Assembly: GCA_022763215.1 (NCBI GenBank)
Contig: JALEHC010000221.1
Span: 1-25,081 of the forward strand
DNA length: 25,081 nt
Reading direction: 5' to 3'
DNA from: Saprospiraceae bacterium
GTDB lineage: Bacteria > Bacteroidota > Bacteroidia > Chitinophagales > Saprospiraceae
The notes below the pieces were generated by a model that worked only from the letters and a program-made list of their open reading frames with translations, was not told where the DNA came from and did not search any database. The position numbers and the translations under genes were made by a program. This document shows positions 1-17,400 of the stretch, in pieces (the first letter of the stretch is position 1; every line of letters begins with the position of its first letter).

Positions 1-1332
1 GGAAACAATGGCGACTTCACCTTTAATATTTCTGATGACAACGTTACAATGGTTGGCGGACAAGCTTGTGTTGAAGTATCTGTTGAAAACTTCACGGATA
101 TTCTGGGCTTGCAATTTAGTATCAACTATGATCCATCCATTTTGGAATTTGTCTCTGTCGGTAATTTTGGCCTTACAGGGCTTAATGAGAACCTAATGGG
201 GTTGCCGACAGGCGGAACACAAGAAGGCCAGATTACAGTGTCGTGGATAGACAACTCACTGGCAGGTGTAAGTTTATCAGATGGAACCGTCTTGTTTGAG
301 CTGTGTTTTAACACACTTGCAGGTGGTAGTTCGGAGGTTGAAATTAGTAACAACCCAACAAGTGTCCAGGTATTGGATAACAATGATAACGTACTTCCAT
401 ACAATGCAAATGCAGGTACCGTGAATGTGACCGGAGGTCCACCACCACCAATGGGAGATGATTTTACACTGATTATATCTGATGAGTTTGTTCAGACCAG
501 TGGAAGTTCGGTTTGTGTAGAAGTGACAACACAGAACTTTACCAATATTTTGGGGATGCAGTTTAGTGTAAACTATAATCCTTCAAAACTGACCTTCGAG
601 TCTGTGGGTAATTTTAATCTGGATGGATTGAATCAAAACCTAATGGGCTTACCAAATGGTAATGGTACACAAGCGGGTAATATTACAGTATCCTGGATTG
701 ATAATGCACTCGCTGGGATTACACTTCCTGATAATACAGTATTGTTTGAAATTTGCTTTACAGCAGATTTGACATCGGGTACCACTCCTGTGGAATTGTC
801 AAATACACCAACTTCTATTCAGATATTGGATAATAACGATGAGGTGTTGATGCCAACTTTGGTGGATGGTTCTGTATCAATTGGTAATCCTGGAGATGGA
901 TTAAAGATTGACATCGAAGATGCAACGGTATGTTCTGATGACAATGAAACCTTCTGTGTGGGTGTAACGGTGGAAGACTTTACCGATATTTTGGGAATGC
1001 AGTTTAGTATCGTCTATGATCCAACAGATTTGGAATACTCCTCTGTTGGCAACTTCAACCTAGATGGCTTGAACGCTAACTTAATGGGCTTGCCTGATGG
1101 CGGACCGACTAGCACGCAACCTGGGGTGATTACACTGTCGTGGATTGATAATGCGCTGTCTGGTGTGTCTTTGCCAGATGGAACTGAGATATTTGAAATA
1201 TGCTTTGAGCCGCTGGCTCCAGAAGGAACTACAAGCAATATTGAGTTTTCTAATATGCCGACTAGTATCCAGGTTATTGATATAAATGATGCACAAGTAC
1301 CATTTATTGATGAGCCCGGGGTGATTACTTTT
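1..1332 (+). other. Three tandem cohesin-like beta-sandwich modules (~145 aa each; unit 1 is truncated at the window edge) inside the SprB-like CDS. They are also visible as ~430-bp DNA-level tandem repeats.
   Basis: Three units share (V/F)CVEV(T/S)..NFT(D/N)ILG(M/L)QFS(I/V)NY(D/N)PS.L.F.SVGNF.L.GLN.NLMGLP....Q.G.IT(V/L)SWIDN.L.G..L.D.T.LFE(I/L)CF......S..E.SN.PTS.Q(V/I)LD.ND.V. This pattern (G..V.V.V....I.G.QF.i.YDP..L....V..G ... G.I...F.....LF.i.F.a ... i.d.nd....dG.V.Ig) parallels type I cohesin signatures. The units are separated by short Pro/Gly linkers (PPPP at 439-450). Confidence 0.5.
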
Positions 1333-4300
1333 GATTGTAATCAGTTTTCTGCTCCAGTTATTCAGGAGCCTGCGACGATTACCAACAATGACTGTTTTGG
1401 TGACATGGATGGTAGCATTAGCATCAGTGTGAATGGTGGTAGTGGTGACTTTTCATATGCATGGTCAAGCCCAGCGGGTGTAGGCAGTGTATCTATGATT
1501 GACAACTTGTCTGCTGGTAACTATACGGTAACGGTAACCGATAATATGTCTGGCCAGACGGCGATTAAAACTTATACGATTACTCAGCCAGCCACACCTG
1601 TAACAATTAATTCAATTGATGTAACAGATATTGTTTGTCCTGGTGAAAATTCAGGTGCTATCAGTGTGAACGCTTCCGGCGGTACAGGCACATTAAGCTA
1701 TAGCTGGACGCCAAATGCGCCTGCAACAGCAAGTATCACTAACCTTTCAGCAGGAGAATTTTATAGAGTAACCATTACGGATGCCAATGGATGTGAGGAA
1801 GTATCTTCCTTCATCGAAGTAGCAGAACCTGAGGCAATCGCTACAAATGCAGTTGTTACAGATATTGCTTGTAGTGGTGAAGCAAATGGTTCGATTGATA
1901 TTACGCCTTCCGGCGGAACGGGCTCCTTGTTTGTAGATTGGGATGTACTTCCTGATTTCCAAACTTCGCACTCAAACTTGAGTGCAGGTACTTATACCGT
2001 TACAATATCAGATGGAAATAACTGTGAATTGGTAGAATCCTTTGAAATTACAGATCCTGATCCAATTGTAATAAACGAACAGGTCCAAGATGTAGAATGT
2101 GCCGGCGACATGAATGGCTTTGTTAATTTGAACGTAAGTGGAGGTACTGCTTCCGCAGGATATTCAATCGACTGGGCTGATGCTGGATTAACGGACGATG
2201 AAGGAACACAAATGAACTTGGCAGCTGGTTCTTATGAAGTTACGATTACGGATGATAATAACTGTTCGATTGTAGAGGTAATTGATATAAACGAACCAAG
2301 TGCAATTGAACTAAATCCAACCGTTGAAAATGTGCTATGTGCTGGTGAAAACTCTGGTACTATTAGCCTTAATATTACAGGAGGTACTCCAAACCCTGAT
2401 TATGCCATCAACTGGGGAGGTCCTCTTCCTGATGGTCAGAGTATGCAAGCACAGTTGCCTGCGGGGACTTACCCTGTTACCGTGACGGACGGGAATGGTT
2501 GTGCAGAGATACAGAATATTACAGTGGAAGAGCCGAATGCTCCTATCATTGTTACTGCTATGGTAGAAGACATTGCCTGTGAAGGTGGGCCGACTGGTAG
2601 TATTAGCCTTAGCATAAGTGGTGGTACACCTGGTAATGCAGGATATTCGATTGACTGGGCAACCCTCACTGATGGTGAAATGATGCAGGAAAACCTGGAA
2701 GCAGGTAATTACACGGTAAGTGTAACTGATGAAAATGGCTGCGAAACAGTAGAGTCATTTGTTGTAAACTCTGACGCACCGATATTTATCAATGGTACTG
2801 TTGAAGATGTAAGTTGTGCCGGAGAAAGTGATGGTGGTATTTCAATTACCCTTGCTGGTGGCTCACAAAATTTTGATATTTCATGGGATGGACCAGGTGT
2901 TGATCCGCTGGAAGCTCAGCAAGTTAATCTGGGTGCAGGTGAATATACAATAACGGTCACAGATACACAGTCTGGTTGTGAAAAAATTGAAACATTTGAA
3001 GTGGCTGAACCAGGCGAGCTGGCTGCAACAGCTGATATCCAGAATGCAGCGTGTTTCGCGGAAGCGACAGGCTCTGTAGTGCTGGATGTTACAGGAGGTA
3101 CCGAAAACTATACCATCGATTGGAGTGGAGGTATTTCACAAAATGAAACAAATCCAAGTGGTTTGTTGGCTGATGATTATATGGTAACCATCACCGATGC
3201 CAATGGATGTACCCTTGAACAAACAATTACGGTAGGTGAAGCTGCTGAAATCTCAGTGATGGCTGATCTTACTAATATTAATTGTTCGGGTGATGAAACA
3301 GGTGCAATTAGTATCAGTATTTCAGGTGGTACACCAATGTACACTAGAGATTGGACGGACTTACCTGATAACTTAAATACACAAAACAACTTGGGCGCTG
3401 GTACCTATGAATTGGTAATTACTGATGCTAATGGTTGTAATGAAACAGTAAGCTTTGAACTGACAGAACCAGATCCAATTGAGCTGAATGAAGTTGTAGA
3501 ATACGTTGATTTGGGCAATGATGGCTCTGTTGATTTAAGTACAACAGGTGGGGTAGAGCCTTACACTTTCGAGTGGTCGGGGCCAAATACATTTAGCAGC
3601 TCCTCAGAAGATTTGACTAACCTGAATGATATAGGTGAATACTGCGTAACTGTTACCGATGCCAATGGTTGTGTTTACGAAGAATGCCTCGATGTCCGTC
3701 TAAGATTACAGTTTGGGTTTGAAACAATACAGTTTTCTTGTGGTGATCTTGATAATGGCTTAATTGACCTGGAAGTATTGGGGGGATTAGAACCATATAC
3801 CTTTGATTGGGATGTAACGGGGGCAGCTGACTCGCCATTGCTTGATGGTGTGGGCGCCGGTACTTATACCGTAACCGTTACGGATGCAGAAGGGACTCAA
3901 ATTACTGGAACTTTTGAAGTTGGTGAATATCCTGGTTTGGTGGTTTCTGAGACATTGACTCCAGCTCAAGGTTTGGTTAATAACTTTAATGGAGCTATCA
4001 ATCTAAATATTTCAGGAGGTGCACAGCCATATGATATTATTTGGGACAATGGCTTTACAACAGCTAATATCAGCGGTCTTCAAGCCGGTACTTACTGTGT
4101 GACGATTACCGATGCCAATGGCTGTACGTTCGAAGAATGTTACATTATCGAATTCATTCCGGATGAACTTGAAATTGAAGAATCCATTGCCATTGAGGCA
4201 AATTGTTCTGGTGATGATAATGGTCGTTTGTTGATTACAGTATATGGCGGTATTCCACCTTATACTATGACGATTAACATTAATGGTACGGATGAAGTCA

Positions 4301-5907
4301 TTACGAGTGTGAACCGTGAATTTGAAATTGAAGGTCTTGCAGCTGGTAGTTATAGCTACACTGTTGTAGATGGAAATGGCGACATGGTAGCTGGATCGGA
4401 AACGGTAGAAGAACCAGATCCACTGACTTTGCAAGGATTTAACGTACGACACGATACGGAATTGACAGGACCTGGAATTGGTACTGGCCGTATTCAATTG
4501 AATATTCAAGGTGGTACACCAAACTATTCAGTAACATGGTTGGGTACGCCATTACAAGGGCCAACTATTATTTCTTTGGACTCTGAAATTTATACACCTC
4601 AAGTAGTAGATAGCAGAGGTTGTACTATCATTTTCCCAGAGATAGAAGTTGAAGAATTTGCGATTGACCTGGAAGGTACGCCAGCTGTATGTACAGGTGA
4701 TGAAAATGGTGCTGTTGACCTTGTTATTACGGATGGAGACATGCCGTATACCTTCAGCTGGGAGCTAGAAAATGGAGGTACAGCAACTACAGAAGATATC
4801 AATAACCTGCCAGCCGGTACTTATACGGTTACCGTTACCGAAAATTCTGGTAATACATTGGTTGAAAACATTACTATTGGTACGCAATCAAACTTACAAT
4901 TGGAAGCAGAAGTTGCAACCAACTATAATGGATTTGATGTAAGCTGTGCTGATAGTGCGGATGGTGAAGTAAGTGCAAATGCAATCTTTAATGGTGCTGC
5001 TTGTACCGATTGTGATTACGAATGGGTCTTGGAGGGTGAGCTATTAGGCGTAAATCAGACCCTTACAGATGCTCGACCAGGTACCTATGAACTGACGGTT
5101 ATCGATCCGTTGATGTGTGAAAATATACAAGAAGTTGTTTTGGTCGCTCCAGATCCACTTGTATTAAACTCAAACATTCAGGAAGTGGCTTGTCCAGGCG
5201 ATCGCAATGGTGTCATTACGGTTATGGTAACTGGTGGCGTTGGAGGTTTCTTTGATTATGATTGGAGTAACGGAAGTAGCACTTTCCAAAATGCAAATCT
5301 ATCTTCTGGTACATATGCCTTGACCGTAAGTGATGATAACAACTGTGAAGTTTCTGATTTATTCGAATTAGTTGATCCGGCTCCATTAGAAATCAACTTA
5401 CAAATAGAAAACGATACGGACCCTGAAGGTTGTAATGGTTCTGTTTGGGCCGTTGTAAATGGTGGTTTCCCGCCATATACCTATGATTGGAGCACCCTGG
5501 AGGTTGACGAAACGCAGGCATTAGTTGAAAGTGTATGCCCTGGTGCTTATGTCGTTTCAGTAACAGATGTAAGAGGATGTACTCAAGTATCTACGGTCGG
5601 AAATGTATTGAATCGTTCCTTTGATTGTTTGGAAGAACGTATCGTTATCACACCTGACGGGAATGGTTCAAATGATGAGTTCATTATTAACTGTATCGAA
5701 GAATTGATGGAAAATCATCTGGAAGTTTACAACAGATGGGGACAATTGGTATTCGAAACAGATAATTATGACAATACTTGGGAAGGTACTTCTCAGAATG
5801 GAGATGTGCTTCCGGAAGGTCCATATTTCTTTGTATTGGATTATAGAGATCCGATTACTAATGAGATGACACAGTACAGAGGTTCAATGACAATTTTGAA
5901 AGAATAA
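1..5907 (+). CDS. SprB-like giant cell-surface gliding adhesin, 5'-truncated by the window edge (frame 1 is open from nt 1; >=1968 aa in window). It has cohesin-like modules, ~18 SprB-type repeats and a T9SS type B C-terminal domain.
   Basis: One uninterrupted ORF to the TAA at 5905-5907. The reading frame is open from nt 1, and the first ATG at 49 lies inside repeat unit 1, so the gene starts upstream of the window. Recurrent ~80-100 aa units carry the motifs C.G..(N/D)G.I and GG(T/S)..Y...W, typical of SprB repeats from Flavobacterium gliding adhesins. The C-terminal ~98 aa (ITPDGNGSNDEFIIN...YNRWGQLVFE...W.G...G..LP.G.YFF.L) match the gliding-motility-associated (T9SS type B) CTD. Confidence 0.9.
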   Translation, partial: GNNGDFTFNISDDNVTMVGGQACVEVSVENFTDILGLQFSINYDPSILEFVSVGNFGLTGLNENLMGLPTGGTQEGQITVSWIDNSLAGVSLSDGTVLFELCFNTLAGGSSEVEISNNPTSVQVLDNNDNVLPYNANAGTVNVTGGPPPPMGDDFTLIISDEFVQTSGSSVCVEVTTQNFTNILGMQFSVNYNPSKLTFESVGNFNLDGLNQNLMGLPNGNGTQAGNITVSWIDNALAGITLPDNTVLFEICFTADLTSGTTPVELSNTPTSIQILDNNDEVLMPTLVDGSVSIGNPGDGLKIDIEDATVCSDDNETFCVGVTVEDFTDILGMQFSIVYDPTDLEYSSVGNFNLDGLNANLMGLPDGGPTSTQPGVITLSWIDNALSGVSLPDGTEIFEICFEPLAPEGTTSNIEFSNMPTSIQVIDINDAQVPFIDEPGVITFDCNQFSAPVIQEPATITNNDCFGDMDGSISISVNGGSGDFSYAWSSPAGVGSVSMIDNLSAGNYTVTVTDNMSGQTAIKTYTITQPATPVTINSIDVTDIVCPGENSGAISVNASGGTGTLSYSWTPNAPATASITNLSAGEFYRVTITDANGCEEVSSFIEVAEPEAIATNAVVTDIACSGEANGSIDITPSGGTGSLFVDWDVLPDFQTSHSNLSAGTYTVTISDGNNCELVESFEITDPDPIVINEQVQDVECAGDMNGFVNLNVSGGTASAGYSIDWADAGLTDDEGTQMNLAAGSYEVTITDDNNCSIVEVIDINEPSAIELNPTVENVLCAGENSGTISLNITGGTPNPDYAINWGGPLPDGQSMQAQLPAGTYPVTVTDGNGCAEIQNITVEEPNAPIIVTAMVEDIACEGGPTGSISLSISGGTPGNAGYSIDWATLTDGEMMQENLEAGNYTVSVTDENGCETVESFVVNSDAPIFINGTVEDVSCAGESDGGISITLAGGSQNFDISWDGPGVDPLEAQQVNLGAGEYTITVTDTQSGCEKIETFEVAEPGELAATADIQNAACFAEATGSVVLDVTGGTENYTIDWSGGISQNETNPSGLLADDYMVTITDANGCTLEQTITVGEAAEISVMADLTNINCSGDETGAISISISGGTPMYTRDWTDLPDNLNTQNNLGAGTYELVITDANGCNETVSFELTEPDPIELNEVVEYVDLGNDGSVDLSTTGGVEPYTFEWSGPNTFSSSSEDLTNLNDIGEYCVTVTDANGCVYEECLDVRLRLQFGFETIQFSCGDLDNGLIDLEVLGGLEPYTFDWDVTGAADSPLLDGVGAGTYTVTVTDAEGTQITGTFEVGEYPGLVVSETLTPAQGLVNNFNGAINLNISGGAQPYDIIWDNGFTTANISGLQAGTYCVTITDANGCTFEECYIIEFIPDELEIEESIAIEANCSGDDNGRLLITVYGGIPPYTMTININGTDEVITSVNREFEIEGLAAGSYSYTVVDGNGDMVAGSETVEEPDPLTLQGFNVRHDTELTGPGIGTGRIQLNIQGGTPNYSVTWLGTPLQGPTIISLDSEIYTPQVVDSRGCTIIFPEIEVEEFAIDLEGTPAVCTGDENGAVDLVITDGDMPYTFSWELENGGTATTEDINNLPAGTYTVTVTENSGNTLVENITIGTQSNLQLEAEVATNYNGFDVSCADSADGEVSANAIFNGAACTDCDYEWVLEGELLGVNQTLTDARPGTYELTVIDPLMCENIQEVVLVAPDPLVLNSNIQEVACPGDRNGVITVMVTGGVGGFFDYDWSNGSSTFQNANLSSGTYALTVSDDNNCEVSDLFELVDPAPLEINLQIENDTDPEGCNGSVWAVVNGGFPPYTYDWSTLEVDETQALVESVCPGAYVVSVTDVRGCTQVSTVGNVLNRSFDCLEERIVITPDGNGSNDEFIINCIEELMENHLEVYNRWGQLVFETDNYDNTWEGTSQNGDVLPEGPYFFVLDYRDPITNEMTQYRGSMTILKE
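1369..5610 (+). repeat. About 18 tandem SprB-type repeat units (protein-coding) forming the stalk of the adhesin.
   Basis: Counted GG..(P)Y...W motifs, e.g. SVNGGSGDFSYAWSS, SGGTGTLSYSWTP, GGTENYTIDWSG, GGVEPYTFEWSG, GGLEPYTFDWDV, GGAQPYDIIWDN, GGFPPYTYDWST. Each is preceded by a C.G...G.I segment and followed by a (Y/T)TVT(V/I)TD.NGC strand. Confidence 0.7.
5611..5904 (+). other. T9SS type B C-terminal sorting domain (gliding motility-associated CTD, TIGR04131-like).
   Basis: NRSFDCLEERIVITPDGNGSNDEFIINCIEEL..LEVYNRWGQLVFETDNYDNTWEGTSQNGDVLPEGPYFFVLDYRD.....YRGSMTILKE matches the consensus FTPNGDG.ND.F.I.G......L.I.NRWG..V.E...Y.N.W.G...G..LP.GTY.Y... Confidence 0.85.
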
Positions 5908-6009: not shown

Positions 6010-6987
6010 ATGAAAAAGATACTTCTACTTTTAATTTCTATAACGGCATGCTTTTCCCTGGCTGCACAGGATGAAGCAATTTTTAATCAGTATCACATCA
6101 ATCCGATCTTGGTAAACCCTGCTTATGCTGGTTTTGAGCGTACTCCTAAAGCAGGTGGTATTGGGTTTTCTGATGATGATTTTAACGGAGTGCATATTTT
6201 ACAAGCAAACTACCGCGGGCAGTGGTCTGGGTTTGATGGTGCGCCTAAAACATATATGTTGTCTTACCATGGCCCAATTAGTAATACTTTTGGTCTGGGG
6301 GTAAGCCTTGGTTCTGAAACAGCTGCACAAATGCGCCGTTTCAAAGGTCAATTGAATATGGCGTTCCGCTTTCCTATCAAGGATAATTTCAGATTGACGA
6401 TTGGCCCTTCTTTGGAGGTTCAGCAAATGACTGTTGATAATGGCGTTGTAGACGATCCGTTCTATATTCCTTCTGATGAAACCCTGGAAGAGTTTATTAA
6501 CGGTAAGCGAGAATTTGATGCATCCTTAGGTATTATGGGAGAAATCAAGCAAAATACTTTGATTGGTTTGTCTTTTGCCAACTTGGTTCGTGCGCGTTTA
6601 GATAATATTTCTGACGATCAGCAAGAATCTTTCTTTTCTTATTACACTTTCTTTGCAAGACATCGATTCCAGGTAGCAGGGCCAGATTTTGAGTTGGTTC
6701 CGTCTATGATGATTCGTCAGTTAAGAGATGCACCTTTCCAAATTGATTTTAATTTGATGGCCAATTTTATGGTCGGAGAAAATAAAGACAATAGATTATC
6801 AGCTGGTCTATCCTATCGCTTTGGTGATTTGGGGGTACTATTAGGGTTTAATGTGTTCAATATTGATGTTTATTATGGATATGACGTTTCTTTCCGTCGA
6901 TTCCAGAAATTTAACATGGGTTCACACGAAATTACTATTGCTTATAAGCTGGTAAAAAAGAAAAGCGCTAATAAAGCGCAGCAATAA
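6010..6987 (+). CDS. Type IX secretion system outer-membrane protein, PorP/SprF family.
   Basis: A 325-aa ORF with ATG at 6010 and an N-terminal signal peptide (MKKILLLLISITACFSLAAQ). The family-typical N-terminal motif FNQY.INP.LVNPAYAGF follows. The size and beta-rich composition fit a beta-barrel. The gene sits immediately downstream of a type B CTD protein gene, which is the canonical sprB-sprF arrangement. Confidence 0.85.
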   Translation: MKKILLLLISITACFSLAAQDEAIFNQYHINPILVNPAYAGFERTPKAGGIGFSDDDFNGVHILQANYRGQWSGFDGAPKTYMLSYHGPISNTFGLGVSLGSETAAQMRRFKGQLNMAFRFPIKDNFRLTIGPSLEVQQMTVDNGVVDDPFYIPSDETLEEFINGKREFDASLGIMGEIKQNTLIGLSFANLVRARLDNISDDQQESFFSYYTFFARHRFQVAGPDFELVPSMMIRQLRDAPFQIDFNLMANFMVGENKDNRLSAGLSYRFGDLGVLLGFNVFNIDVYYGYDVSFRRFQKFNMGSHEITIAYKLVKKKSANKAQQ

Positions 6988-7645: not shown

Positions 7646-8012
7646 ATAAATATGATATCTTTGTATATGTCTACGATAGTAGATTCTTTTCAAAAGAGCT
7701 TCCAATAATCCGCAAATAGCGGTCATACCAATCAAAAAATTCAGGGGAATATAATTTCATATCCCTATATGGTTCTTCAATAAAAAGTAGAGCCATTGAA
7801 ACCTTTATTTTTTCTATCCGTATACTGACTTAATGCATGCAAATAGTGCATGTTTTCAAGCCTCAATTTGAATGGCTTGCCTGTTTGATGGTTTTGTAGA
7901 GAATGTGAAGACGTGTAAAAAACAGGATTATAAATGACCTTATTTTATGGGCAATTATAAATTAAGGCGATTGGATTGTATGTGATTCACAAGAACCGTT
8001 TTCAAGTTATAC

Positions 8013-8540: not shown

Positions 8541-8545
8541 GAGCT

Positions 8546-9349
8546 TTAAACATTTGGTTTGTTCAGGGAAACACTATTGTTACTTTGGTTTTCAAATACT
8601 TCTTCGATGTCCCATTTTTCAGAAAAAGGTTTATCGATTGTTTTAGGGCCCGCAAAATTGTAAAGCAAACCACCTCCGGCCAGCAAAATGATGATCGGAA
8701 GACAACCGCTCATGGAAGCACCTGCCGATCCGCCGGCAAATAAGGGAAATAAGATTGCTGCTGCAAAAGCTTGTTTAATCATAGCGAACAATAAAGCGAT
8801 TCCCAGGCCAATACCAATTATGGTAGCCGCACCACCAATTAATTTGCCAAATAGACCAAAATCGTTCAGTATCGTAATTTTTGTAACTGAGGTACGCGGC
8901 AGGTAGGATTTGTCTTTGAAAAATACATATTCCTGACTGATATGTTGCAAACGTCCCTTTTTGAAGTGATTTTCTCCATCCTTTCTATAATCTGCCCTAA
9001 TTCTGATCCCTTTTTTAACGATTCTTTTTAGCCTTCTTTTTTTGAGTTTGAAAATCCACTTTCGCAAACCCTTTGGAGCTTTCATTTGCTTTTCGAGTTG
9101 AGCCATAATTTCTTCATGACTCGTTGTGGCTCTCTTAAAGGATTGTAAATCTTGTAATGGAATTTGGTGAAGTTCAGAGGAAGTGGTACTACATCTGATA
9201 TAGAAAAGAGATTCGCCTGCGATGGAATCGAAGCGGATATTAATCTTGCTTCCATCTTTAAGGAATAGGGTACTGCAATCAGAGACGTTTTGTGCTTGGA
9301 CTGATAAATAGAAAAATACCAGAATACTGCTTGTGATTAAATTTTTCAT
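8546..9349 (-). CDS. Secreted/membrane-anchored protein of unknown function. It has a signal peptide, two small KDG-containing beta modules, a polybasic amphipathic segment and a C-terminal glycine-zipper TM pair.
   Basis: ATG at 9349 (complement). The signal peptide is MKNLITSSILVFFYLSVQAQ. Two related ~45-aa modules are present (FLKDGSKINIRFDSIAGESLFY... and DYRKDGENHFKKGRLQHISQEYVFF...). The highly cationic stretch is RKWIFKLKKRRLKRIVKKGIRIR. The Gly/Ala-rich TM helices are GGAATIIGIGLGIALLF and LFAGGSAGASMSGCLPIIILLAGGGLL. Confidence 0.6.
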   Translation of the reverse strand: MKNLITSSILVFFYLSVQAQNVSDCSTLFLKDGSKINIRFDSIAGESLFYIRCSTTSSELHQIPLQDLQSFKRATTSHEEIMAQLEKQMKAPKGLRKWIFKLKKRRLKRIVKKGIRIRADYRKDGENHFKKGRLQHISQEYVFFKDKSYLPRTSVTKITILNDFGLFGKLIGGAATIIGIGLGIALLFAMIKQAFAAAILFPLFAGGSAGASMSGCLPIIILLAGGGLLYNFAGPKTIDKPFSEKWDIEEVFENQSNNSVSLNKPNV

Positions 9350-9377
9350 ATGTAGGTTTTTTGGTTGATTGATACTT

Positions 9378-9385
9378 CAAAAGTA
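9378..9385 (-). promoter_or_regulatory. Candidate Bacteroidota sigma-A -7 element (TACTTTTG = TAnnTTTG) for the 9349-to-8013 operon.
   Basis: On the minus strand the motif TACTTTTG lies 28 nt upstream of the ATG. There is no Shine-Dalgarno sequence, as is typical of Bacteroidota. Confidence 0.3.
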
Positions 9386-10295
9386 TAGGGATGGGAGCGA
9401 AATAGTCAGGAAAATGATCATAGCAAAATATATAAAATACTTTAATGTCGATAATTTTAATGTCGAACTACGAATAGAAGGAAATAATGTTGTTAAATCT
9501 GATGGGGTGATAAGCTACTGATTTTTAAACTATTACATATTTGTGTTTATGTGGTTTCTCTATTTATATATAAAAAAATAACAAAGCGATTGAGCTGGAG
9601 TGAATTTGGCATAGTTTTTTCTATACTATGATTGACTGTTGGAAACATCCGATAAAGCTCGGATCGACACCGAACTAGAAAAAAGAATAAAAAACATATA
9701 AAAATTGTTTAATTTGATTTTTTGGCACGGTTTTTTCAATAGATAAAGTAGCAACAGAAAAGGAAAACAGCGTATATAAAAAGTACGAGAATTCCTGTTT
9801 TGTGCAACAAACATACTGAAGCCGAAAGGTTTCCAAACATACTACAGACGTTATAAAGGCGTCATTAATCGGTATCCAAAATAGGATGCCAATCAACTAT
9901 GAGCGATTACAACACTACACACATATGTGGATAAAGGAGAAGTAAGCGTACTATGAGAAAATAATTTTGCTTGCCTTCTCAACAGTGAATTTCCGTTTGC
10001 TGTTTTCTTCCACATCAATTGGCAGAAGCACCAAGAAATGCTTCATACAATCAGTAATAACCATTAAGTAAGGATTTAAGTAGATGATTTTGTGTCATTT
10101 AGTGTAGGATTTGCCGAAAGGCGAGCCACTAAAGACAGGGGAGAGGTATGTCTGATTGAACCGAAAAATACAGAATACTATAACGGATAGTGCCGATGGC
10201 ACAAGCGTCTAAGCATAACACCGCATAGCGGTGAACAGGATACGTATAACCAAAATTTCACACATATTTTTTAGTAATTTTAAACTACATCAAAA

Positions 10296-13200
10296 ATGAA
10301 AAACGTACTACTATCCCAGAATTGGGACCGAGAAAGCTTTGCTCCAAAGGAAGCAAACAACAACAAATTGGCAAACTGGTTGATTAAAGCAACACTTCTT
10401 TTTGCCTTACTTTTTAGCTCTTTGACAACAACTAACGCGCAATGTACCTTATTTTGTAATGGTACTTCGCAAACAACCGCTTTACCACTTTCTGTTAACA
10501 ACTCATGCGAGAGTGTAATTCTGGCGAGCCAACTGATCGATATGGATCAGACAGATTGCCCAGATGGAAAGCGACTGACCGTGAGAGACGAAATGAATAG
10601 TCAAATCGCGGAAGACATTGACCAAGTGGTATTTGATGCCACCGATTATATCGGCGAAGTGGTTAGTGTAACAGTGACCGACACAACTACCGGCTTATTT
10701 TGCGTAAGCTTCGTGGAAATCATTGACAATTTGCCTCCATCAGTAGACTGTCAGTCGGCTATGGTAAAATGTGTTGCAGACACAAGTGCAGCAGCAATTG
10801 GATTTCCAACGATTACAGACAATTGTGACAATGACGTGGTGCTAACCTATGTCGATAACATGGACGATCAGCCTTGTTTTGCACCGAATACACTTGTCAT
10901 CAATAGAGTGTGGACAGCCAGAGATGCTAGTAATAATGTAAGCACCTGTTCACAGACTATCTTAGTAGACCGTCCAAACTTAAATGAAATTGACTTTCCG
11001 GATGGGCTGGTACTGGATTGTGATAATGCAGATGTCGGATTGGATGTAACAGGGCAACCATCGATTACGGATGAAGTGATTGACAACAATGGCTTTTGTG
11101 ATTTGACCGTAACTTTTGCAGATGATACCTTATATACATGTGGAACGATAGAGTACGAGATTGTAAGAACATGGACGGTAGAAGATGATTGCTCTGATCA
11201 AACTGCTGTTTCTACACAAACAATTACAGTAACTGACCAGACCGCACCTGATATTACTTGCCCAGATAATGTGATGGTTCAGACTTTACCTGGCCAGTGT
11301 TATACTACGGTGACTTTACCAGAACCGACTTTGAGTGACAACTGTGACCCGAATGCAACCTTCTTAGTCAATACTTCGTATGGATCGGTTGGTACAGGAC
11401 CACACCCATTCGTACCGGTAGGAACGCATTCTGTACAGTATACTGGAGTTGATTTTTGTGGAAATGCAGTAGTGTGTACAATTGCCCTGAACGTAGTTGA
11501 TGATGAAGAACCGGTAGCTGTATGTAGTGACTTTACCGCTGTTTCGATTCCTTCTTCTGGGCTTGCAATGGTATCTGCGACTACTTTTGATGATGGAAGT
11601 AATGACAACTGTGCAACGGAGCTTTATTTTAAAGCTAAGAAGATGACAGATGGTACTTGTAATAACGCGAATGGTGATGACTCAAATGACCCTGGCAATC
11701 AGGAATGGTTTGATGATAGTGTGATCTTCTGCTGCGCAGAGACGGATACAGATGCACAAGTAATGATGCGTGTATATGAAATTGATCCGGGTGACGGACC
11801 AGTTGAACCAGGAAGAGAAGCACCAGGTGGAGATTTGTTTGGCCACTTTACAGAATGTATGGTAAATGTAAGCGTGCAGGATAAAATCAACCCAGTATTT
11901 ACCAACTGTCCGAATGATTTGACAATTACATGTACAGAAGATATTTCAGACTTGTCTGTTTTTGGAGTGGCACATATTGTAGACAATTGTTCTGCAACGC
12001 TAGATTCTACAGAAGTTATTGACATCAGTTCATGTGGTGAAGGAGCTATTACAAGAACCTTTACTGCGACGGATCAATCAGGTAACCAAACACAATGTGT
12101 ACAAACGATTAGCGTGATCAATGGTGATCCATTTGATGAGAATGATATTGTTTGGCCAGGCGACGTAACACTTGAGACATGTGGCGCAGGTACAGACCCA
12201 GAAGATTTGCCAGACGGTTTGCAGGAACCTCAGATATTGAGTGAAGATTGTACTATGGTTGCCTATAACTACGACGATCACTTGTTTGACATTGCCTTCC
12301 CGGCTTGTTACAAGATCTTGAGAACATGGACGGTCATCGACTGGTGCCAGTATGATCCAAATGATCCGGATGCAGAAGGACGATTTAGCGATGTACAAGT
12401 TATTAAAGTGGAAGATAATGAAGCACCGATAATGGATTGTCCAGATGATATAGTAGCGGCGGTTTCTACTAACTGCAACACAGGTACTGTAACACTTGAT
12501 CCACTAACAGCAGATGATTGTAACCCGAATGTATTGATTACGAACAATTCACCTTATGCAGATGCAGGTGGTGCGAATATCAGCGGTGAATATCCACTTG
12601 GACAAACGATAGTAACGATTACGGCTTCTGACAGATGTGGAAATACAACGACTTGCGAAGTCATGGTAACCGTAGAGGATTTGAGTGCACCTTCACCAGT
12701 ATGTATCGTGGGTATCTCAGCGAGCTTGGTCGAGATGAATGGCGAAATAATGGCAACGATTAATGCAGATGCCTTTGATGGCGGAAGTACTGATAATTGT
12801 ACATCACCAGAAGATTTGGATCTACTGATTCGGGTAGCGGGTGATGGACCAACAAATACGGCACCTACAACCTCACAACTTGTGTTTAACTGCGAAGATG
12901 TCGGGTCACAAGTGATCGAATTCTGGGCAGTCGATGAAGAAGGAAATGGTGATTTTTGTACGACTTATGTACTGATTCAGGATAATATGAACTTGTGTCC
13001 AGCTACGACAACAAGCGGTATGATAGCGGGTAGCATCAATACAGAAATGGGTGAAACAGTCGAAGATGTAATGGTGTACATCAACGCACCGGGCAACAAT
13101 CAGAGTATGACGAATATAGACGGTACATTTGAGTTCCTTGGTATTCCATTCGGATTTGATTATGCACTGGTACCTGAGAAAAATGACCAAGTAACGAACG

Positions 13201-14273
13201 GAGTGAATACACTGGATATGATCAAAATCTCGAGACATATTCTTGGCGTACAAAAATTGGATTCACCATACAAAATGATTGCTGCTGATGTGGATGGCTC
13301 TGGTAGCATCTCGGTTCTGGACCTAGTATACATGAGAAAGTTGATCTTGAATGTAAGCGAAAACTTCCCGAACAATACCAAATCATGGAAGTTTATCCCG
13401 GCTGACTATGAATTCACGGATGACACGAACCCATTTGCGGATGATTATCCAACAGCCTCTTCGATTGATGACTTTGATGTAAGCGAAATGTATACGGACT
13501 TTATTGGAGTGAAAATGGGAGATGTAGACAACTCAGCACAGCCAAATAGCTTGTTTGCACCAACGAACGACGATAACAGCAACAACTTAGTGATCAATAC
13601 AGAGAATACATATTTGCCGCAAGGCGAAGAAATAGAGGTACCATTTAGCGTAAGCGACATGCAAAATATCAATGGCTACCAGTTTACACTGAATGTTGAT
13701 CTTGATCAGGTAGAGATTGTAGAAGTTCTGGAAGGTGATTTGCCAGAGATGAATGAAGATAACTTCGGAATTGCGATGGAAGATGGCTGGATCACAACAA
13801 GCTGGAATGCAGCACCAGATGCAGAGTTGGCAGAAGATACGAGACTGTTTACACTGGTACTGAGAGCGAAAACGGACATTGAAGTGGCGAATGTGATCGA
13901 GTTGACATCGGATGTGACGGCTGCTGAAGCTTATGACACAGATGACAAGCAGAGCGGTGTTGATTTGAACTTTAGCCAGAATGTGACTGCAACGAACACG
14001 GTACAGGCAGAAGGCTACGAATTGTATCAGAATACGCCGAATCCGTTCCGCGATCAAACAACAATCGCCTTCGATTTGCCGGAAGCTGGGTATGCTGTAC
14101 TTACGATCTACAATGCGGCTGGAACGGAGCTATACAGAAAAGAAGGACAATATGCTGCCGGACGAAACAGCATTATGATCCAGAGACATGATTTGAATGC
14201 AAGCGGAGTAGTTTACTACAAGCTACAAACCAAGCAATTCGAAGCAACTAAGAAGATGGTAATCACAAAATAA
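10296..14273 (+). CDS. Large secreted T9SS type A cargo protein (1325 aa). Its domains in order are: multiple HYR/Ig-like modules, a CarbopepD-regulatory-like beta-sandwich, a dockerin-like module, a cohesin-like module, and a Por_Secre_tail CTD.
   Basis: ATG at 10296. The signal peptide has an unusually long n-region, with cleavage near NAQ/C at aa 48. HYR-type motifs recur (P.I.CP......C......P...DNCD ... G.H.V.YT..D..GN...C...V.V.D...P), along with RTWTV.D.C...QTI.V.D..AP signatures. The C-terminal YELYQNTPNPFRDQTTIAFDLPEAGYAVLTIYNAAGTELY...SGVVYYKL....ATKKMVITK matches the T9SS type A CTD. Confidence 0.9.
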   Translation: MKNVLLSQNWDRESFAPKEANNNKLANWLIKATLLFALLFSSLTTTNAQCTLFCNGTSQTTALPLSVNNSCESVILASQLIDMDQTDCPDGKRLTVRDEMNSQIAEDIDQVVFDATDYIGEVVSVTVTDTTTGLFCVSFVEIIDNLPPSVDCQSAMVKCVADTSAAAIGFPTITDNCDNDVVLTYVDNMDDQPCFAPNTLVINRVWTARDASNNVSTCSQTILVDRPNLNEIDFPDGLVLDCDNADVGLDVTGQPSITDEVIDNNGFCDLTVTFADDTLYTCGTIEYEIVRTWTVEDDCSDQTAVSTQTITVTDQTAPDITCPDNVMVQTLPGQCYTTVTLPEPTLSDNCDPNATFLVNTSYGSVGTGPHPFVPVGTHSVQYTGVDFCGNAVVCTIALNVVDDEEPVAVCSDFTAVSIPSSGLAMVSATTFDDGSNDNCATELYFKAKKMTDGTCNNANGDDSNDPGNQEWFDDSVIFCCAETDTDAQVMMRVYEIDPGDGPVEPGREAPGGDLFGHFTECMVNVSVQDKINPVFTNCPNDLTITCTEDISDLSVFGVAHIVDNCSATLDSTEVIDISSCGEGAITRTFTATDQSGNQTQCVQTISVINGDPFDENDIVWPGDVTLETCGAGTDPEDLPDGLQEPQILSEDCTMVAYNYDDHLFDIAFPACYKILRTWTVIDWCQYDPNDPDAEGRFSDVQVIKVEDNEAPIMDCPDDIVAAVSTNCNTGTVTLDPLTADDCNPNVLITNNSPYADAGGANISGEYPLGQTIVTITASDRCGNTTTCEVMVTVEDLSAPSPVCIVGISASLVEMNGEIMATINADAFDGGSTDNCTSPEDLDLLIRVAGDGPTNTAPTTSQLVFNCEDVGSQVIEFWAVDEEGNGDFCTTYVLIQDNMNLCPATTTSGMIAGSINTEMGETVEDVMVYINAPGNNQSMTNIDGTFEFLGIPFGFDYALVPEKNDQVTNGVNTLDMIKISRHILGVQKLDSPYKMIAADVDGSGSISVLDLVYMRKLILNVSENFPNNTKSWKFIPADYEFTDDTNPFADDYPTASSIDDFDVSEMYTDFIGVKMGDVDNSAQPNSLFAPTNDDNSNNLVINTENTYLPQGEEIEVPFSVSDMQNINGYQFTLNVDLDQVEIVEVLEGDLPEMNEDNFGIAMEDGWITTSWNAAPDAELAEDTRLFTLVLRAKTDIEVANVIELTSDVTAAEAYDTDDKQSGVDLNFSQNVTATNTVQAEGYELYQNTPNPFRDQTTIAFDLPEAGYAVLTIYNAAGTELYRKEGQYAAGRNSIMIQRHDLNASGVVYYKLQTKQFEATKKMVITK
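11247..11510 (+). other. HYR (hyalin-repeat) domain 1 of the 10296-14273 CDS.
   Basis: PDITCPDNVMVQTLPGQCYTTVTLPEPTLSDNCDPNATF...VGTHSVQYTGVDFCGNAVVCTIALNVVDDEEP. Confidence 0.6.
12423..12704 (+). other. HYR domain 2 of the 10296-14273 CDS.
   Basis: APIMDCPDDIVAAVSTNCNTGTVTLDPLTADDCNPNVLI...YPLGQTIVTITASDRCGNTTTCEVMVTVEDLSAP. Confidence 0.6.
13167..13349 (+). other. Dockerin-like module (two F-hand repeats) in the 10296-14273 CDS.
   Basis: KNDQVTNGVNTLDMIKISRHILGVQKLDSPYKMIAADVDGSGSISVLDLVYMRKLIL matches the type I dockerin duplicated segment D.N.DG.VN..D...L.RY.L. It is preceded by a CarbopepD_reg-like segment (GSINTEMGETVEDVMVYIN...TNIDGTFEF). Confidence 0.55.
13581..13973 (+). other. Cohesin-like module in the 10296-14273 CDS.
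   Basis: LVINTENTYLPQGEEIEVPFSVSDMQNINGYQFTLNVDLDQVEIVEV..GDLP....DNFGIAMEDGWITTSWNAAPD..L..DTRLFTLVLRAKTD...ANVIELTSD follows the same pattern as the three modules at 1-1332 (…NILGMQFS.NYDP..LEF.SV ... ITVSWIDN ... LFEICF). Confidence 0.45.
14013..14270 (+). other. T9SS type A C-terminal sorting domain (Por_Secre_tail, TIGR04183-like).
   Basis: YELYQNTPNPFRDQTTIAFDLPEAGYAVLTIYNAAGTELYRKEGQYAAGRNSIMIQRHDLNASGVVYYKLQTKQFEATKKMVITK. Confidence 0.85.
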
Positions 14274-14655: not shown

Positions 14656-17400
14656 ATGAAATTAGATGTACAACAGCAGCTCCAGTGGTGGGCCTATTGC
14701 AATGATCGTGCTTTGCAAAACAAACCTCTCTTATACAAATACTTATTCTTGGCTTCTTGGGCAATATTTTTTGCCGGAAACCTGAATGCACAGCAATGTG
14801 GCGCTATTTGTGATGATTTGGTTACTGTTACGCTTAACTCTACAGGTTTGGGTGCCGCACCTGCAACAACCTTTGATGAAGGAACAGCAGCTTCCTGCTG
14901 TGTCGATTTTTTTGAAGTAAAACGCATGACTGACCCGGATGCGGCCTTCAATTCCAGTGTCGTATTTTCTTGTGCCGACGTCGACAACGGTCCGGTATCT
15001 GTTATTTTAAGAGTAGTTGGCTGTGATGGCTCTACCAGTACCTGCATGTCCCTAGCGAATGTGGAAGATAATATTGATCCGGTATTGGCTTGCCCAAACC
15101 CCATGACGGTTGGTTGCGGCCTGGGCGATAGCTCTCCGTCTATGACTGGACAGCCGGAAGTAACAGAAGCTTGCGGTGTGGCCGACTTGTTTTATATAGA
15201 CAATACCTTCGATACCAACTGTGGTGGAGGTTTTATAGAACGCGTATGGACGGCAACTGACCCTTCCGGAAATGCAGGCACTTGCGTGCAAATTATAAAC
15301 ATTGAAGATACGACGCCATTGATGGTCGATTTCCCAGATGACTATACGGTAAACTCTTGTGTAACCGTGGATGATCTGGACCCAGAAGATTTGCCAGCTC
15401 CTTTTGACTTTCCGGTTATTAATGGGGATGATTGCGAAATGGTATTTCAAAGTCATGAAGACTTTGTATTTACGGCAAGTGGAAATTCCTGTATCAAAAT
15501 ATTGAGAACCTGGAAAATTATTGACTGGTGTGTTTATAACCCAGGAGGAACAGATGGATTATACGAAGATGTACAAATTATCAAAGTAAACGATAATGCA
15601 CCTCCAACTTATGATTGCCCGGAGGACTATACCGTTGCTTTTCTTGATAGTGATTGTGATACTGATATCACAATTCCGATGCCAGATAATATTGACGATT
15701 GTTTACCGGATGTAGATGTGCATGTAAGTGGTGTGCTTGGAACCGGATTTAGTTATGAAGATGTCGGGGAAGGTACTTATGGTTTTACGTATACGCTGAC
15801 AGATGGTTGTGGTAATTCCAGTAGTTGCAGCATTAATGTAACGGTCGTAGATGGGAATGCACCAGACTTTGTTTGTTTGAATGGATTGGCGGTTTCTTTG
15901 ATGCCGAGTGGAATGATAGAGTTGGCAGCCGATGATTTTATTCAGTATGTGAGCGATAATTGTACCGCCACTTCCAATATCCAATTGCGAATTGGTGGGG
16001 CACCAGAACCGGGGCAAGATGATCCACCTGCTGAAAATAGCATTGTTTTTACATGTGATGACCTCGGCAATAATGTAGTGGCTATCTGGGCTGGTGATGA
16101 GGCTGGCAATTGGGATTATTGCCTTACTTATGTAGAAATTCAGGACAATAGCAATGGTTGTAACCCTATTACTGGGGGTATAAGCTTGGGTGGATACATC
16201 CAGAATGAAGACGGTGCTGAGTTAGAAAACATTATGGTGCGCCTAAATGAGGACGAAGAATTAGAAAGTATGACAGACTCTATTGGGGGCTATATGTTTG
16301 AACCAATTGAGCCAGGTATAGATTACTCCATCAAACCAGAAAAAGACACCAGTTATATGGAAGGTGTAAATACGTTGGATTTGATTTACTTGATGCGTCA
16401 TATTACGGGTACAGATCCTTTGGAGTCGCCCTATAAAATTATTGCAGCAGATATTGATAATTCTGGTAATGTCAGCATTATGGATGCAATATCTTTGCAG
16501 CGATGTATTTTATCGGTTACGGATACTTTCCCGAATAATACGAGCTGGCGATTTGTGAAATCTTCTTACTTATTCCCAAATCCGCTAAATCCGTTTACAC
16601 CACCATTTCCAGAGCAGATTGAAGCAGATAGCATGCTGCTAAATATGTTTAATGCTGACTTTGTGGGTATTAAGGTTGGTGATCTGGATAATTCTAGTAT
16701 GGCTTCTGCATTGCAGGAAACTACAGATCGTTCTGGCAATTTGTTGTTGTATACCAAGGAGCAACAGTTCAATGAAGGAGAAAAAGTTATGATTGAAGTA
16801 CGTGCTGCTGATTTTGCTTCATTGGCAGGTATGCAATGGGCTTTTGAGTTGGATTTGACTTCCGTCAAATGGGAATCTGTTCTTCCTGGAGTCATTCCGA
16901 TGGATGGTACAAATGCACATTTATCGAAAGATGGTCAATTGCGTTTTAGTTGGGCTACTGGCAATGCCTATACGGTAAAACAAGATGATATCTTGTTTAC
17001 TATTGTATTAGAAGCTTTAGCTGATAATAATATTAGTAATATTTTTCAGATGAATAGTCAATCTGCTTGGAAAAAAGCTTATTTGTCTAACAATCTGAAT
17101 AAGGTGGAAACACAATTGTTTGTGCAACAAGGAGATGCAAGTACCCTTGAGGTAATGGAAGCCTATCCGAATCCAACTGTAGGGCAAACAATGATTCCAT
17201 TTGTACTACCACAGCAAGCGGAGGTTCAGTTGAATGTATGGGACTCGAATGGACAATTGATTTTTTCAAATAAGCAAATATTTGCTGCAGGCCAGCATGC
17301 ATGGGCTATTGAAGCCAATGATTTGCCGGTATCAGGTACTTATTGGTATGAAGTAAAAACAGACGGAAAGACAAGCAGAGCAAAGCTAGTCAAACTATAA
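14656..17400 (+). CDS. Paralogous T9SS type A cargo protein (914 aa). Its domains in order are: HYR/Ig-like modules, a CarbopepD-regulatory-like segment, a dockerin-like module, a cohesin-like module, and a Por_Secre_tail CTD.
   Basis: ATG at 14656. The signal peptide has a similarly long n-region (…AIFFAGNLNAQ/QC). Residues 1-914 align colinearly with residues ~405-1325 of the upstream gene. Examples: CIKILRTWKIIDWCVYNP...EDVQIIKVNDNAPP vs CYKILRTWTVIDWCQYDP...SDVQVIKVEDNEAP, and VNTLDLIYLMRHITGTDPLESPYKIIAADIDNSGNVSIMD vs VNTLDMIKISRHILGVQKLDSPYKMIAADVDGSGSISVLD. The C-terminus EAYPNPTVGQTMIPFVLPQQAEVQLNVWDSNGQLIF....SGTYWYEVKTDGKTSRAKLVKL is a type A CTD. Confidence 0.9.
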   Translation: MKLDVQQQLQWWAYCNDRALQNKPLLYKYLFLASWAIFFAGNLNAQQCGAICDDLVTVTLNSTGLGAAPATTFDEGTAASCCVDFFEVKRMTDPDAAFNSSVVFSCADVDNGPVSVILRVVGCDGSTSTCMSLANVEDNIDPVLACPNPMTVGCGLGDSSPSMTGQPEVTEACGVADLFYIDNTFDTNCGGGFIERVWTATDPSGNAGTCVQIINIEDTTPLMVDFPDDYTVNSCVTVDDLDPEDLPAPFDFPVINGDDCEMVFQSHEDFVFTASGNSCIKILRTWKIIDWCVYNPGGTDGLYEDVQIIKVNDNAPPTYDCPEDYTVAFLDSDCDTDITIPMPDNIDDCLPDVDVHVSGVLGTGFSYEDVGEGTYGFTYTLTDGCGNSSSCSINVTVVDGNAPDFVCLNGLAVSLMPSGMIELAADDFIQYVSDNCTATSNIQLRIGGAPEPGQDDPPAENSIVFTCDDLGNNVVAIWAGDEAGNWDYCLTYVEIQDNSNGCNPITGGISLGGYIQNEDGAELENIMVRLNEDEELESMTDSIGGYMFEPIEPGIDYSIKPEKDTSYMEGVNTLDLIYLMRHITGTDPLESPYKIIAADIDNSGNVSIMDAISLQRCILSVTDTFPNNTSWRFVKSSYLFPNPLNPFTPPFPEQIEADSMLLNMFNADFVGIKVGDLDNSSMASALQETTDRSGNLLLYTKEQQFNEGEKVMIEVRAADFASLAGMQWAFELDLTSVKWESVLPGVIPMDGTNAHLSKDGQLRFSWATGNAYTVKQDDILFTIVLEALADNNISNIFQMNSQSAWKKAYLSNNLNKVETQLFVQQGDASTLEVMEAYPNPTVGQTMIPFVLPQQAEVQLNVWDSNGQLIFSNKQIFAAGQHAWAIEANDLPVSGTYWYEVKTDGKTSRAKLVKL
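15601..15852 (+). other. HYR domain of the 14656-17400 CDS.
   Basis: PPTYDCPEDYTVAFLDSDCDTDITIPMPDNIDDCLPDVDV...EGTYGFTYTLTDGCGNSSSCSINVTVVDGNAP. Confidence 0.6.
16327..16515 (+). other. Dockerin-like module of the 14656-17400 CDS.
   Basis: KDTSYMEGVNTLDLIYLMRHITGTDPLESPYKIIAADIDNSGNVSIMDAISLQRCIL. Confidence 0.55.
16738..17070 (+). other. Cohesin-like module of the 14656-17400 CDS.
   Basis: LLLYTKEQQFNEGEKVMIEVRAADFASLAGMQWAFELDLTSVKWESVLPG...DGQLRFSWATGNAYTVKQDDILFTIVLEALAD. Confidence 0.45.
17143..17397 (+). other. T9SS type A C-terminal sorting domain.
   Basis: LEVMEAYPNPTVGQTMIPFVLPQQAEVQLNVWDSNGQLIFSNKQIFAAGQHAWAIEANDLPVSGTYWYEVKTDGKTSRAKLVKL. Confidence 0.85.

Follow-up and report, generated by a model that had tools for sequence, protein, structure and literature searches.

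Cohesin-dockerin pairing is the textbook assembly principle of the cellulosomes of Gram-positive bacteria and is widely used in protein engineering. Among the described systems closest to the one presented here are the clostridial type I pairs (C. thermocellum CipA Coh2-Xyn10B Doc, 1OHZ/2CCL; OlpC Coh-Doc435, 4DH2), the type II X-dockerin (XDoc) dyad of C. thermocellum CipA (5G5D/3KCP), in which a separate X module precedes the dockerin, and the non-cellulosomal cohesin of Archaeoglobus fulgidus (2XDH). Non-cellulosomal cohesins and dockerins were reportedly surveyed by Peer et al. in 2009. Both modules in one polypeptide are known from scaffoldins and archaeal proteins. The same combination is present in Amy4/Sca1 of Ruminococcus bromii, whose cohesin adjoins a dockerin at the C-terminus and which can homopolymerise through both (PMC12663171). 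The subject of the present work is a stretch of 25,081 nucleotides from a Saprospiraceae bacterium (contig JALEHC010000221.1; hereafter the window) and the two adjacent paralogs P1 and P2 that it encodes. Each of them ends in a beta-sandwich with an inserted dockerin, a cohesin and a C-terminal sorting domain (CTD) of the type IX secretion system (T9SS). This C-terminal cassette of sandwich::dockerin, cohesin and CTD is fixed and usually has one dockerin for one cohesin. Residue numbers are those of P1 unless P2 is named, and coordinates are collected in Table 1.

By fold, the two modules belong to the type I cohesin and dockerin families. Compared with clostridial cellulosomes, the cassette is hosted by a Gram-negative Bacteroidota lineage (Saprospiraceae-like), its export route is the T9SS rather than Sec plus S-layer homology (SLH) or sortase anchoring, and its cargo is HYR adhesin-like, without a carbohydrate-active enzyme (CAZyme) or carbohydrate-binding module (CBM). 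Its dockerin lies inside a beta-sandwich, has a degenerate first F-hand and asymmetric repeats, and adjoins a cohesin in the same chain. No CAZyme or CBM family was matched by a Pfam and TIGR scan of P1, P2 and ORF-A, a large open reading frame (ORF) at the left end of the window. A cellulosome or amylosome, with enzyme-borne dockerins and a CBM-bearing scaffoldin, is therefore ruled out. Amy4/Sca1 resembles the cassette in having cohesin and dockerin side by side at the C-terminus of one polypeptide, but its cohesin precedes a free-standing C-terminal dockerin, whereas in the cassette the dockerin comes first and is inserted. Amy4/Sca1 is moreover a GH13 enzyme of a Gram-positive host with neither sandwich insertion nor CTD, and its binding was shown by experiment, while that of the cassette is deduced from co-variation (see below). 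The cassette also differs from the type II XDoc: its dockerin is flanked by sandwich strands on both sides, which is an insertion and not a tandem arrangement, and the GDVN motif of the last sandwich strand staples the dockerin. CnaB, SdrD B and carboxypeptidase-regulatory sandwiches, to which the cassette sandwich is related by fold, have no EF-hand pair inserted between their strands.

Architecture of the C-terminal cassette

P1 and P2 align end to end (925 aa, 34% identity, BLASTP E 1e-159), with 35-40% identity in the cassette region. Their N-terminal parts consist of HYR and HYR_4C repeats (Pfam), and their meaningful matches are limited to HYR, HYR_4C, cohesin, dockerin and CTD. The original prediction had placed a dockerin-like and a cohesin-like module upstream of a type A CTD at 13167-13973 (P1 aa 958-1226) and 16327-17070 (P2 aa 558-805). 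Both modules are real and their order is kept in the two paralogs, as judged from profiles and fold; the unit begins about 55 aa further upstream (P1 aa ~901, nt 12996), as the dockerin is preceded by the first half of the sandwich. The assignment of the pair rests on AlphaFold2 models and on matches of a profile of 122 relatives to solved structures of dockerins (4uyp_B 3.6e-7, 8zvk_A 3.8e-7, 4dh2_B 5e-5) and of cohesins (3l8q_A 1.1e-6, 4uyp_A 1.1e-4, also the NagJ cohesin), evidence by which chance or low-complexity similarity is ruled out.

The segment between dockerin and cohesin, FPNNTKSWKFIP...DFIGVKMGDVDNS, had been described as a conserved linker. It is folded: four beta strands predicted at a local distance difference score (pLDDT) of 93-97 complete a CnaB/transthyretin-like sandwich. 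In the AlphaFold2 model of P1 aa 900-1090 (pLDDT 93.3, predicted template modelling score, pTM, 0.87) five strands precede the dockerin (model residues 8-62) and four follow it (132-136, 156-158, 165-167 and 170-174). Since the strands after the dockerin complete a sandwich begun upstream, the dockerin is an insertion in another domain, sitting in the model between the fifth and sixth strands. The sandwich has the seven to nine strands of CnaB, SdrD B or CarboxypepD_reg domains and is superposable on them. Its two halves are also connected by contacts (N915-I1070, D955-G1071, P960-K1032) in a mean-field direct-coupling analysis (DCA) of 355 cassette sequences (effective number, Meff, 320) taken from protein matches, 80 genome loci and 150 cluster representatives. 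Predicted strands, fold match and DCA contacts together rule out a flexible linker. At the end of the sandwich lies a K-x-G-D-V-N motif with invariant G-D (K-M-G-D-V-D at P1 aa 1073-1078, window 13512-13529; an equivalent motif is found in P2). The strongest coupling in the whole cassette (rank 1) joins I978 of dockerin helix 1 to V1077 of this motif, and D1078 couples to S1002 (loop 2 position 5) and N971 (loop 1 position 9). The motif may be a staple, or it may provide an extra calcium ligand compensating for the degenerate first F-hand.

The inserted module has the three-helix dockerin fold. A pair of F-hands was defined by D/N at positions 1, 3, 5, 9 and 12 of either calcium-binding loop and by a helix after each loop. 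Loop 2 is canonical and its ligand positions are identical in both paralogs (P1 D998-V-D-G-S-G-S-I-S-V-L-D1009, P2 D-I-D-N-S-G-N-V-S-I-M-D), with the pattern D998-x-D1000-x-S1002...S1006...D1009 in P1. Among 122 relatives, its positions 1 and 12 are invariant (122/122), 119 have N/D at position 3 and all 122 have S/D/N at position 5. It appears to be the only clearly canonical calcium site of the module. Neither of the two findings that the original prediction named as speaking against a dockerin was made: the ligand positions of loop 2 are conserved between the paralogs, and the module folds as a dockerin and not as an unrelated helical hairpin. Precomputed matches to the Pfam family Dockerin_1 (PF00404) are present in many relatives. 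Exposed recognition positions are conserved across sequences of about 40% identity (T972 97%, H981 99%, R1014 90%, K/R1015 88%). The two repeats are asymmetric (H981 vs L1016; S/Q979 vs R1014), which together with the degenerate first F-hand makes a dual binding mode unlikely.

The downstream module has the nine-stranded jelly-roll fold of cohesins, its strands being assigned from the AlphaFold2 model of aa 900-1240 and from intra-cohesin DCA pairings beta3-beta6 and beta3-beta8. In P1 it is matched by Pfam PF00963 (33.5 bits, aa 1100-1211, cut-off 24.1); the P2 cohesin has no Pfam match by itself and is recognised by the hidden Markov model (HMM) of the family. Surface motifs at G1127, Q1129 and W1170 are near-invariant. 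The CTD occupies the extreme C-terminus of P1 and P2 and scores above the curated TIGR04183 cut-off, which classes both proteins as T9SS type A cargo. In the Porphyromonas gingivalis model the CTD is cleaved by PorU and anionic lipopolysaccharide (A-LPS) is attached, and type A cargo in other Bacteroidota is often released. Attachment of P1 and P2 to the cell surface by CTD cleavage and A-LPS, as originally proposed, would be an extrapolation from Porphyromonas. At their other end, both proteins start with an unusually long hydrophilic segment of ~25-30 aa before the signal-peptide core (P1 10296-10440; P2 14656-14790); the cores end in ...NAQ|C and ...NAQQ|C, respectively, and translation may start elsewhere than at the annotated ATG.

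One genome per species of the Genome Taxonomy Database (GTDB) was scanned with a degenerate pattern, which gave at least 599 stretches, with at least 595 confirmed relatives. These loci belong to Saprospiraceae, Lewinellaceae, Haliscomenobacter, Phaeodactylibacter, Portibacter and Lewinella cohaerens DSM 23179, often with several per genome, and the best identity to P1 among the matches listed in the scan is 49%. The 178 relatives obtained in a protein search with P1 aa 905-1235 are nearly all from Saprospiraceae, Lewinella, Haliscomenobacter or unclassified Bacteroidota, and they have the C-terminal layout in common. A profile search of 1.84 billion representatives of 50%-identity clusters returned 10,247 matches at E <= 1e-30, some of which may be partial. 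Nearly all of the best 150 of these representatives (E <= 1e-174; proteins of 545-6062 aa) match approximately the full profile at or near their C-terminus; a few (e.g. P0122, P0132, P0252) match it partly or internally.

Architectures were counted at the level of loci (80 genome loci and the window, 81 loci in all) and of clusters (148 representatives). At the 81 loci, 111 ORFs have a single dockerin and a single cohesin, another combines one dockerin with two cohesins, no dockerin-only ORF was found, and the distance between the GDV motif and the C-terminus is 230-262 aa throughout. A linker of conserved length joins sandwich and cohesin: K-x-GDV and the cohesin motif GYQF are 51-56 aa apart in 84 of about 100 relatives. 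One dockerin and one cohesin are also found in 127 of the 148 representatives; ten add two to four N-terminal cohesins to the C-terminal cassette, six have two tandem copies of the entire unit, the duplication copying the whole block, and a few contain additional sandwich::dockerin units that lack a cohesin. The gene order ORF-A-like, P1-like, P2-like recurs in L002, and P1-like followed by P2-like in L003, L008 and L009.

Co-variation of dockerin and cohesin

The beta 8-3-6-5 sheet is the canonical dockerin-binding surface of cohesins. R1014, at position 17 of dockerin repeat 2, a classical recognition position, forms DCA pairs with N1171 and S1169 (beta6) and T1208 (beta8 region), at ranks 41, 49 and 90 of ~54,000. 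All top pairs between the cohesin and the rest of the cassette involve the dockerin, the next ones being L1010-A1210, R980-N1126 and N1019-V1207. Six dockerin-by-cohesin pairs score 0.9 or more against 0, 2 and 1 in three cis-breaking shuffles, a difference in counts only. Mutual information with average product correction (APC) was uninformative: it is dominated by gap patterns of the N-terminal sandwich and is blind to highly conserved columns.

Because DCA is noisy at Meff 320 and the shuffles matched its maximum, sister-pair contrasts and an identity-matched control were used. Arginine or another residue at 1014 is associated with a polar or non-polar residue at 1171 (285/34 vs 10/26, odds ratio 22, p 3e-15), and the 36 non-R1014 sequences do not form one clade. 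Non-R sequences were each compared with their nearest R-type relative in 25 roughly independent contrasts, of which 15 show the expected change and none the reverse (p 3e-5). Compared with identity-matched R-vs-R contrasts, excess change falls on beta6 (N1171, S1169, T1167), beta5 (F1157), beta8 (T1208, E1211) and beta3; the mean excess is +1.86 for this face vs -2.23 for the back sheet, which shows no excess (Mann-Whitney p 3e-6). Both paralogs of the window are matched in cis, P1 with R1014 and N1171 and P2 with Q and A at the equivalent positions. P1 and its orthologs are R-type with N, and P2 and its orthologs are Q/H-type. As dockerin and cohesin change together across relatives, they probably bind each other, and the two modules of one cassette are probably a cognate pair that uses the canonical interface. 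The co-variation with the cohesin face is indirect evidence of such binding, which would presumably depend on Ca2+.

A further indication comes from the AlphaFold2 model of P1 aa 900-1240 (341 aa, three modules), which reaches pLDDT 93.8 and pTM 0.89, all five models lying at pLDDT 93.4-93.8. By our own rough estimate, pTM would be ~0.55-0.6 if a ~185-aa body and a ~135-aa body were placed independently. The self-complementary architecture that had been proposed for the paralogs is supported as regards pairing, by the R1014/cohesin-face co-variation and the pTM of 0.89, but an intramolecular latch and an intermolecular chain are indistinguishable on these grounds.

Proposed closure in cis and its alternatives

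The reading that we favour, with a probability of roughly 0.45, is that the default state of the cassette is closed in cis, the dockerin being bound to the neighbouring cohesin as a clasp. It is supported by the prediction of a single rigid body, the fixed linker length, the strict 1:1 adjacency and the duplication of whole units. Dockerin helix 3 (repeat 2 positions 13, 17 and 22, R1014 above all) would lie on the cohesin 8-3-6-5 sheet, contacting S1169 and N1171 of beta6, F1157 of beta5 and T1208 of beta8. Closure would yield one rigid, calcium-stabilised body that may serve as the cell-proximal base of a very large T9SS-exported HYR-repeat adhesin, and it would also prevent the cross-links that two sticky modules could otherwise form between molecules still in the periplasm.

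A number of observations weigh against this reading. The dockerin-on-cohesin contact within the model is deduced from pTM and was not observed as such. In the cis-breaking shuffles the DCA maxima are 0.88-1.32 vs 1.32 observed, single pairs not being individually significant, and the R/N rule has exceptions (31 sequences with R and a hydrophobic residue, 7 with Q/H and a polar one). The dockerin itself scores below the gathering cut-off of Dockerin_1 (P1 18.6 and P2 16.7 bits; cut-off 22.9), and loop 1 is degenerate (P1 N963-D-Q-V-T-N-G-V-N-T-L-D974, P2 D-T-S-Y-M-E-G-V-N-T-L-D): the paralogs keep only positions 1 (N/D), 9 (N) and 12 (D), positions 3 and 5 being Q and T in P1 and S and M in P2, for a family consensus of D/N-x-N/D-x-L-N-G-V-S/T-T-x-D. 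Furthermore, sandwich::dockerin units without a cohesin occur (P0021, P0122, P0131, P0252), as do complete genes (P0117, P0118) that stop just behind the GDVN motif and lack both cohesin and CTD. In L002, L012, L037, L051, L057, L061 and L068, dockerin-less multi-cohesin type B genes are found at most 10 kb from cassette genes. Finally, in the orthologous pairs L038 and L017 (64% identity) the states of adjacent paralogs are swapped, gene 1 having R with F and gene 2 Q with N.

The genes P0118 (L081 656-1594) and P0117 (L082 86-1462) code for a signal peptide, a passenger domain and a sandwich::dockerin, with the stop at most ~10 residues after GDVN. P0118 terminates in three consecutive stop codons, and the 119-aa gene downstream of it is not a split-off cohesin.

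Several of these observations suit chaining or networking in trans, a possible arrangement to which we give a distinctly lower probability. In it the cassette would be rigid and its dockerin would bind the cohesin of another molecule, be it an identical protein, the adjacent paralog or ORF-A with its N-terminal cohesin array. The resulting chains or arrays would hold T9SS-released type A adhesins on the surface, in the way of adaptor scaffoldins or of homopolymerising Amy4/Sca1, which offers a precedent (PMC12663171). Homotypic head-to-tail binding predicts co-variation within the polypeptide equally well, the swapped states in L038 and L017 fit pairing between neighbours better, and the 31 sequences with R and a hydrophobic residue, the dockerin units and genes that lack a cohesin and the ten representatives with additional N-terminal cohesins point the same way. 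So does ORF-A, a multi-cohesin SprB-like type B gene that was overlooked in the original prediction. No dockerin was found in ORF-A with Pfam or the family HMMs. It looks like a scaffoldin-like surface protein and is a candidate trans partner for the cassette dockerins. The ORF-A-like neighbour genes at the seven loci listed above code for two to five cohesins and a type B CTD. Dockerin-less cohesins, including three of ORF-A, have L, I, F or Y at the position equivalent to 1171, the state that accompanies Q/H dockerins; P2-type dockerins could therefore also fit ORF-A cohesins, while P1 may be self-contained. Set against pairing in trans are the single confident body predicted for the monomer and the fixed linker length, both of which are most simply explained by packing in cis; a network does not need the strict 1:1 adjacency of dockerin and cohesin, and a multi-cohesin gene occurs within 10 kb in only 8 of the 81 loci.

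The position of ORF-A and a PorP/SprF-family gene upstream of the cassette genes suggests a T9SS-linked, non-cellulosomal cohesin-dockerin surface network. Extended to a whole T9SS-based, non-enzymatic cohesin-dockerin surface system run by Saprospiraceae-like bacteria, this idea seems to us unlikely. In such a system, SprB-like type B proteins held by PorP/SprF would present N-terminal cohesin arrays at their tip, and these arrays would capture giant type A adhesins, after their release by the T9SS, by the sandwich-embedded dockerins. With every adhesin a further cohesin would be added, giving chains or exchangeable heads on a gliding or prey-capture apparatus. Dockerin position 17 R with cohesin beta6 N, vs Q/H with a hydrophobic residue, would be the specificity code, and closure in cis would let the protein cap itself until it arrives at the surface.

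It is improbable that the cassette cohesin is an Ig-like stalk without a binding role and that the dockerin binds foreign cohesins only, e.g. those of ORF-A. Many T9SS type A cargo proteins do have a beta-sandwich immediately before the CTD, ORF-A supplies at least three free cohesins, and the only dockerins found in the window by the family HMM scan are those of P1 and P2; a mere spacer would nonetheless leave unexplained the R1014-linked changes in the adjoining cohesin, which fall specifically on its 8-3-6-5 face, as well as the near-invariant surface motifs of this module and the fixed spacing. Improbable as well, finally, is a structural relic in which the folds were kept and binding was lost, the dockerin merely stabilising the sandwich by calcium binding, for although the degenerate first F-hand, the sub-threshold Pfam score and the stapling of the dockerin into another domain would agree with it, the exposed recognition positions T972, H981, R1014 and K/R1015 are highly conserved, the co-variation is face-specific, and the cassette has been retained at no fewer than 595 loci and, at E <= 1e-30, in over 10,000 clusters of 50% identity (some possibly partial).

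Gene context and significance

Table 1. Features of the cassette genes and of their neighbours. Positions are nucleotides of the window, except in the last two rows, where they refer to the loci named.
Feature	Position	Strand	Remarks
P1, 1325-aa HYR-repeat adhesin-like T9SS cargo, cassette C-terminal	10296..14273	+	ORF; Pfam HYR 1.4e-16, HYR_4C, Cohesin, Por_Secre_tail
P1 beta-sandwich, N-terminal half, aa ~901-961	12996..13178	+	five strands
P1 dockerin inserted in sandwich, aa ~962-1024	13179..13367	+	three helices; loops aa 963-974, 998-1009
P1 beta-sandwich, C-terminal half, aa ~1026-1081	13371..13538	+	invariant W1031; K-x-G-D-V-N staple motif aa 1073-1078
P1 cohesin, aa ~1096-1228	13581..13979	+	nine strands; beta6 ITTSWN aa 1166-1171, residues co-varying with dockerin
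P1 T9SS type A C-terminal sorting domain, aa 1247-1323	14034..14270	+	TIGR04183 28.5 bits (cut-off 23); PF18962 22.6 bits
P2, 914-aa paralog, equivalent cassette	14656..17400	+	BLASTP to P1 E 1e-159
P2 sandwich N-half aa ~502-562, dockerin ~563-625, sandwich C-half ~626-680	16159..16695	+	family HMMs 6.2e-15, 2.5e-25 and 3.7e-22, in this order; Pfam SdrD_B 0.027
P2 cohesin, aa ~694-823	16735..17124	+	family cohesin HMM 3.2e-29; aligns to P1 cohesin
P2 T9SS type A sorting domain, aa 837-913	17164..17397	+	TIGR04183 39.6 bits; PF18962 30.7 bits (cut-off 27)
ORF-A	1..5907	+	cut at left window edge; frame open from base 1
ORF-A cohesins, at least 3, N-terminal	7-396, 496-849, 901-1245	+	Pfam Cohesin 7.6e-22 (3 stretches), 78.4 bits; family cohesin HMM
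ORF-A SprB repeats, 16		+	Pfam SprB 1.4e-98
ORF-A type B T9SS sorting domain	~5644-5889	+	CHU_C 8.5e-23; TIGR04131
PorP/SprF-family outer-membrane protein gene	6010..6987	+	PF11751 1.2e-42
Small genes coding cohesin and type A CTD	L037 1348-2154; L051 363-1187; L057 8101-8952; L061 11417-12220
Swapped-state paralog pairs	L038 1996-5799 / 6596-10435; L017 599-4396 / 4985-8860

ORF-A is followed by the PorP/SprF-family gene, the usual partner of a type B cargo gene; no other T9SS core gene was found in the window. Between it and P1 are two genes coding for predicted membrane or secreted proteins without Pfam match (8013-8540 and 8546-9349, both on the minus strand), flanked by AT-rich spacers (GC 0.33-0.35) at ~7.0-8.0 kb and 9.35-10.3 kb. 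Further downstream, 21652-23787 (minus strand) codes for a 711-aa protein with an N-terminal membrane helix, a region that is SPFH/flotillin-like by eye and then a very long E/A/K-rich stretch, probably a coiled coil; it has no Pfam match at E <= 0.01, and its gene accounts for an AT skew of -0.44 at 22-23 kb. Neither an Rfam family nor a tRNA gene was found in the window. At four of the loci with a multi-cohesin type B gene, a protein of ~270 aa with one cohesin and a type A CTD is encoded directly upstream of that gene.

No description of a T9SS-coupled cohesin-dockerin cassette, of a Saprospiraceae system of this kind or of a sandwich-inserted dockerin was found in the searchable literature, and the paper on the grappling hooks of Aureispira makes no mention of cohesins or dockerins. 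Neither the cis clasp nor the trans network of type A and type B cargo was found there. As far as this literature shows, the following are new: the sandwich-inserted dockerin, the fixed arrangement of the cassette before a type A CTD, the abundance of this cassette among Saprospiraceae-like bacteria, its association in the genome with PorP/SprF and with SprB-like type B cargo of several cohesins, and the R/N vs Q,H/hydrophobic co-variation.

The cassette would extend the cohesin-dockerin principle to Gram-negative type IX secretion and to adhesins instead of enzymes. It would also add a new topology, in which the dockerin adjoins its own cohesin and is both inserted in a CnaB-like sandwich and stapled to it. 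The R/N vs Q/hydrophobic co-variation represents a testable specificity code, possibly a source of new orthogonal cohesin-dockerin pairs. If closure in cis is true, the cassette would be a natural self-capping or rigidifying clasp; if pairing in trans is true, it would join T9SS cargo of types A and B in a network at the surface.

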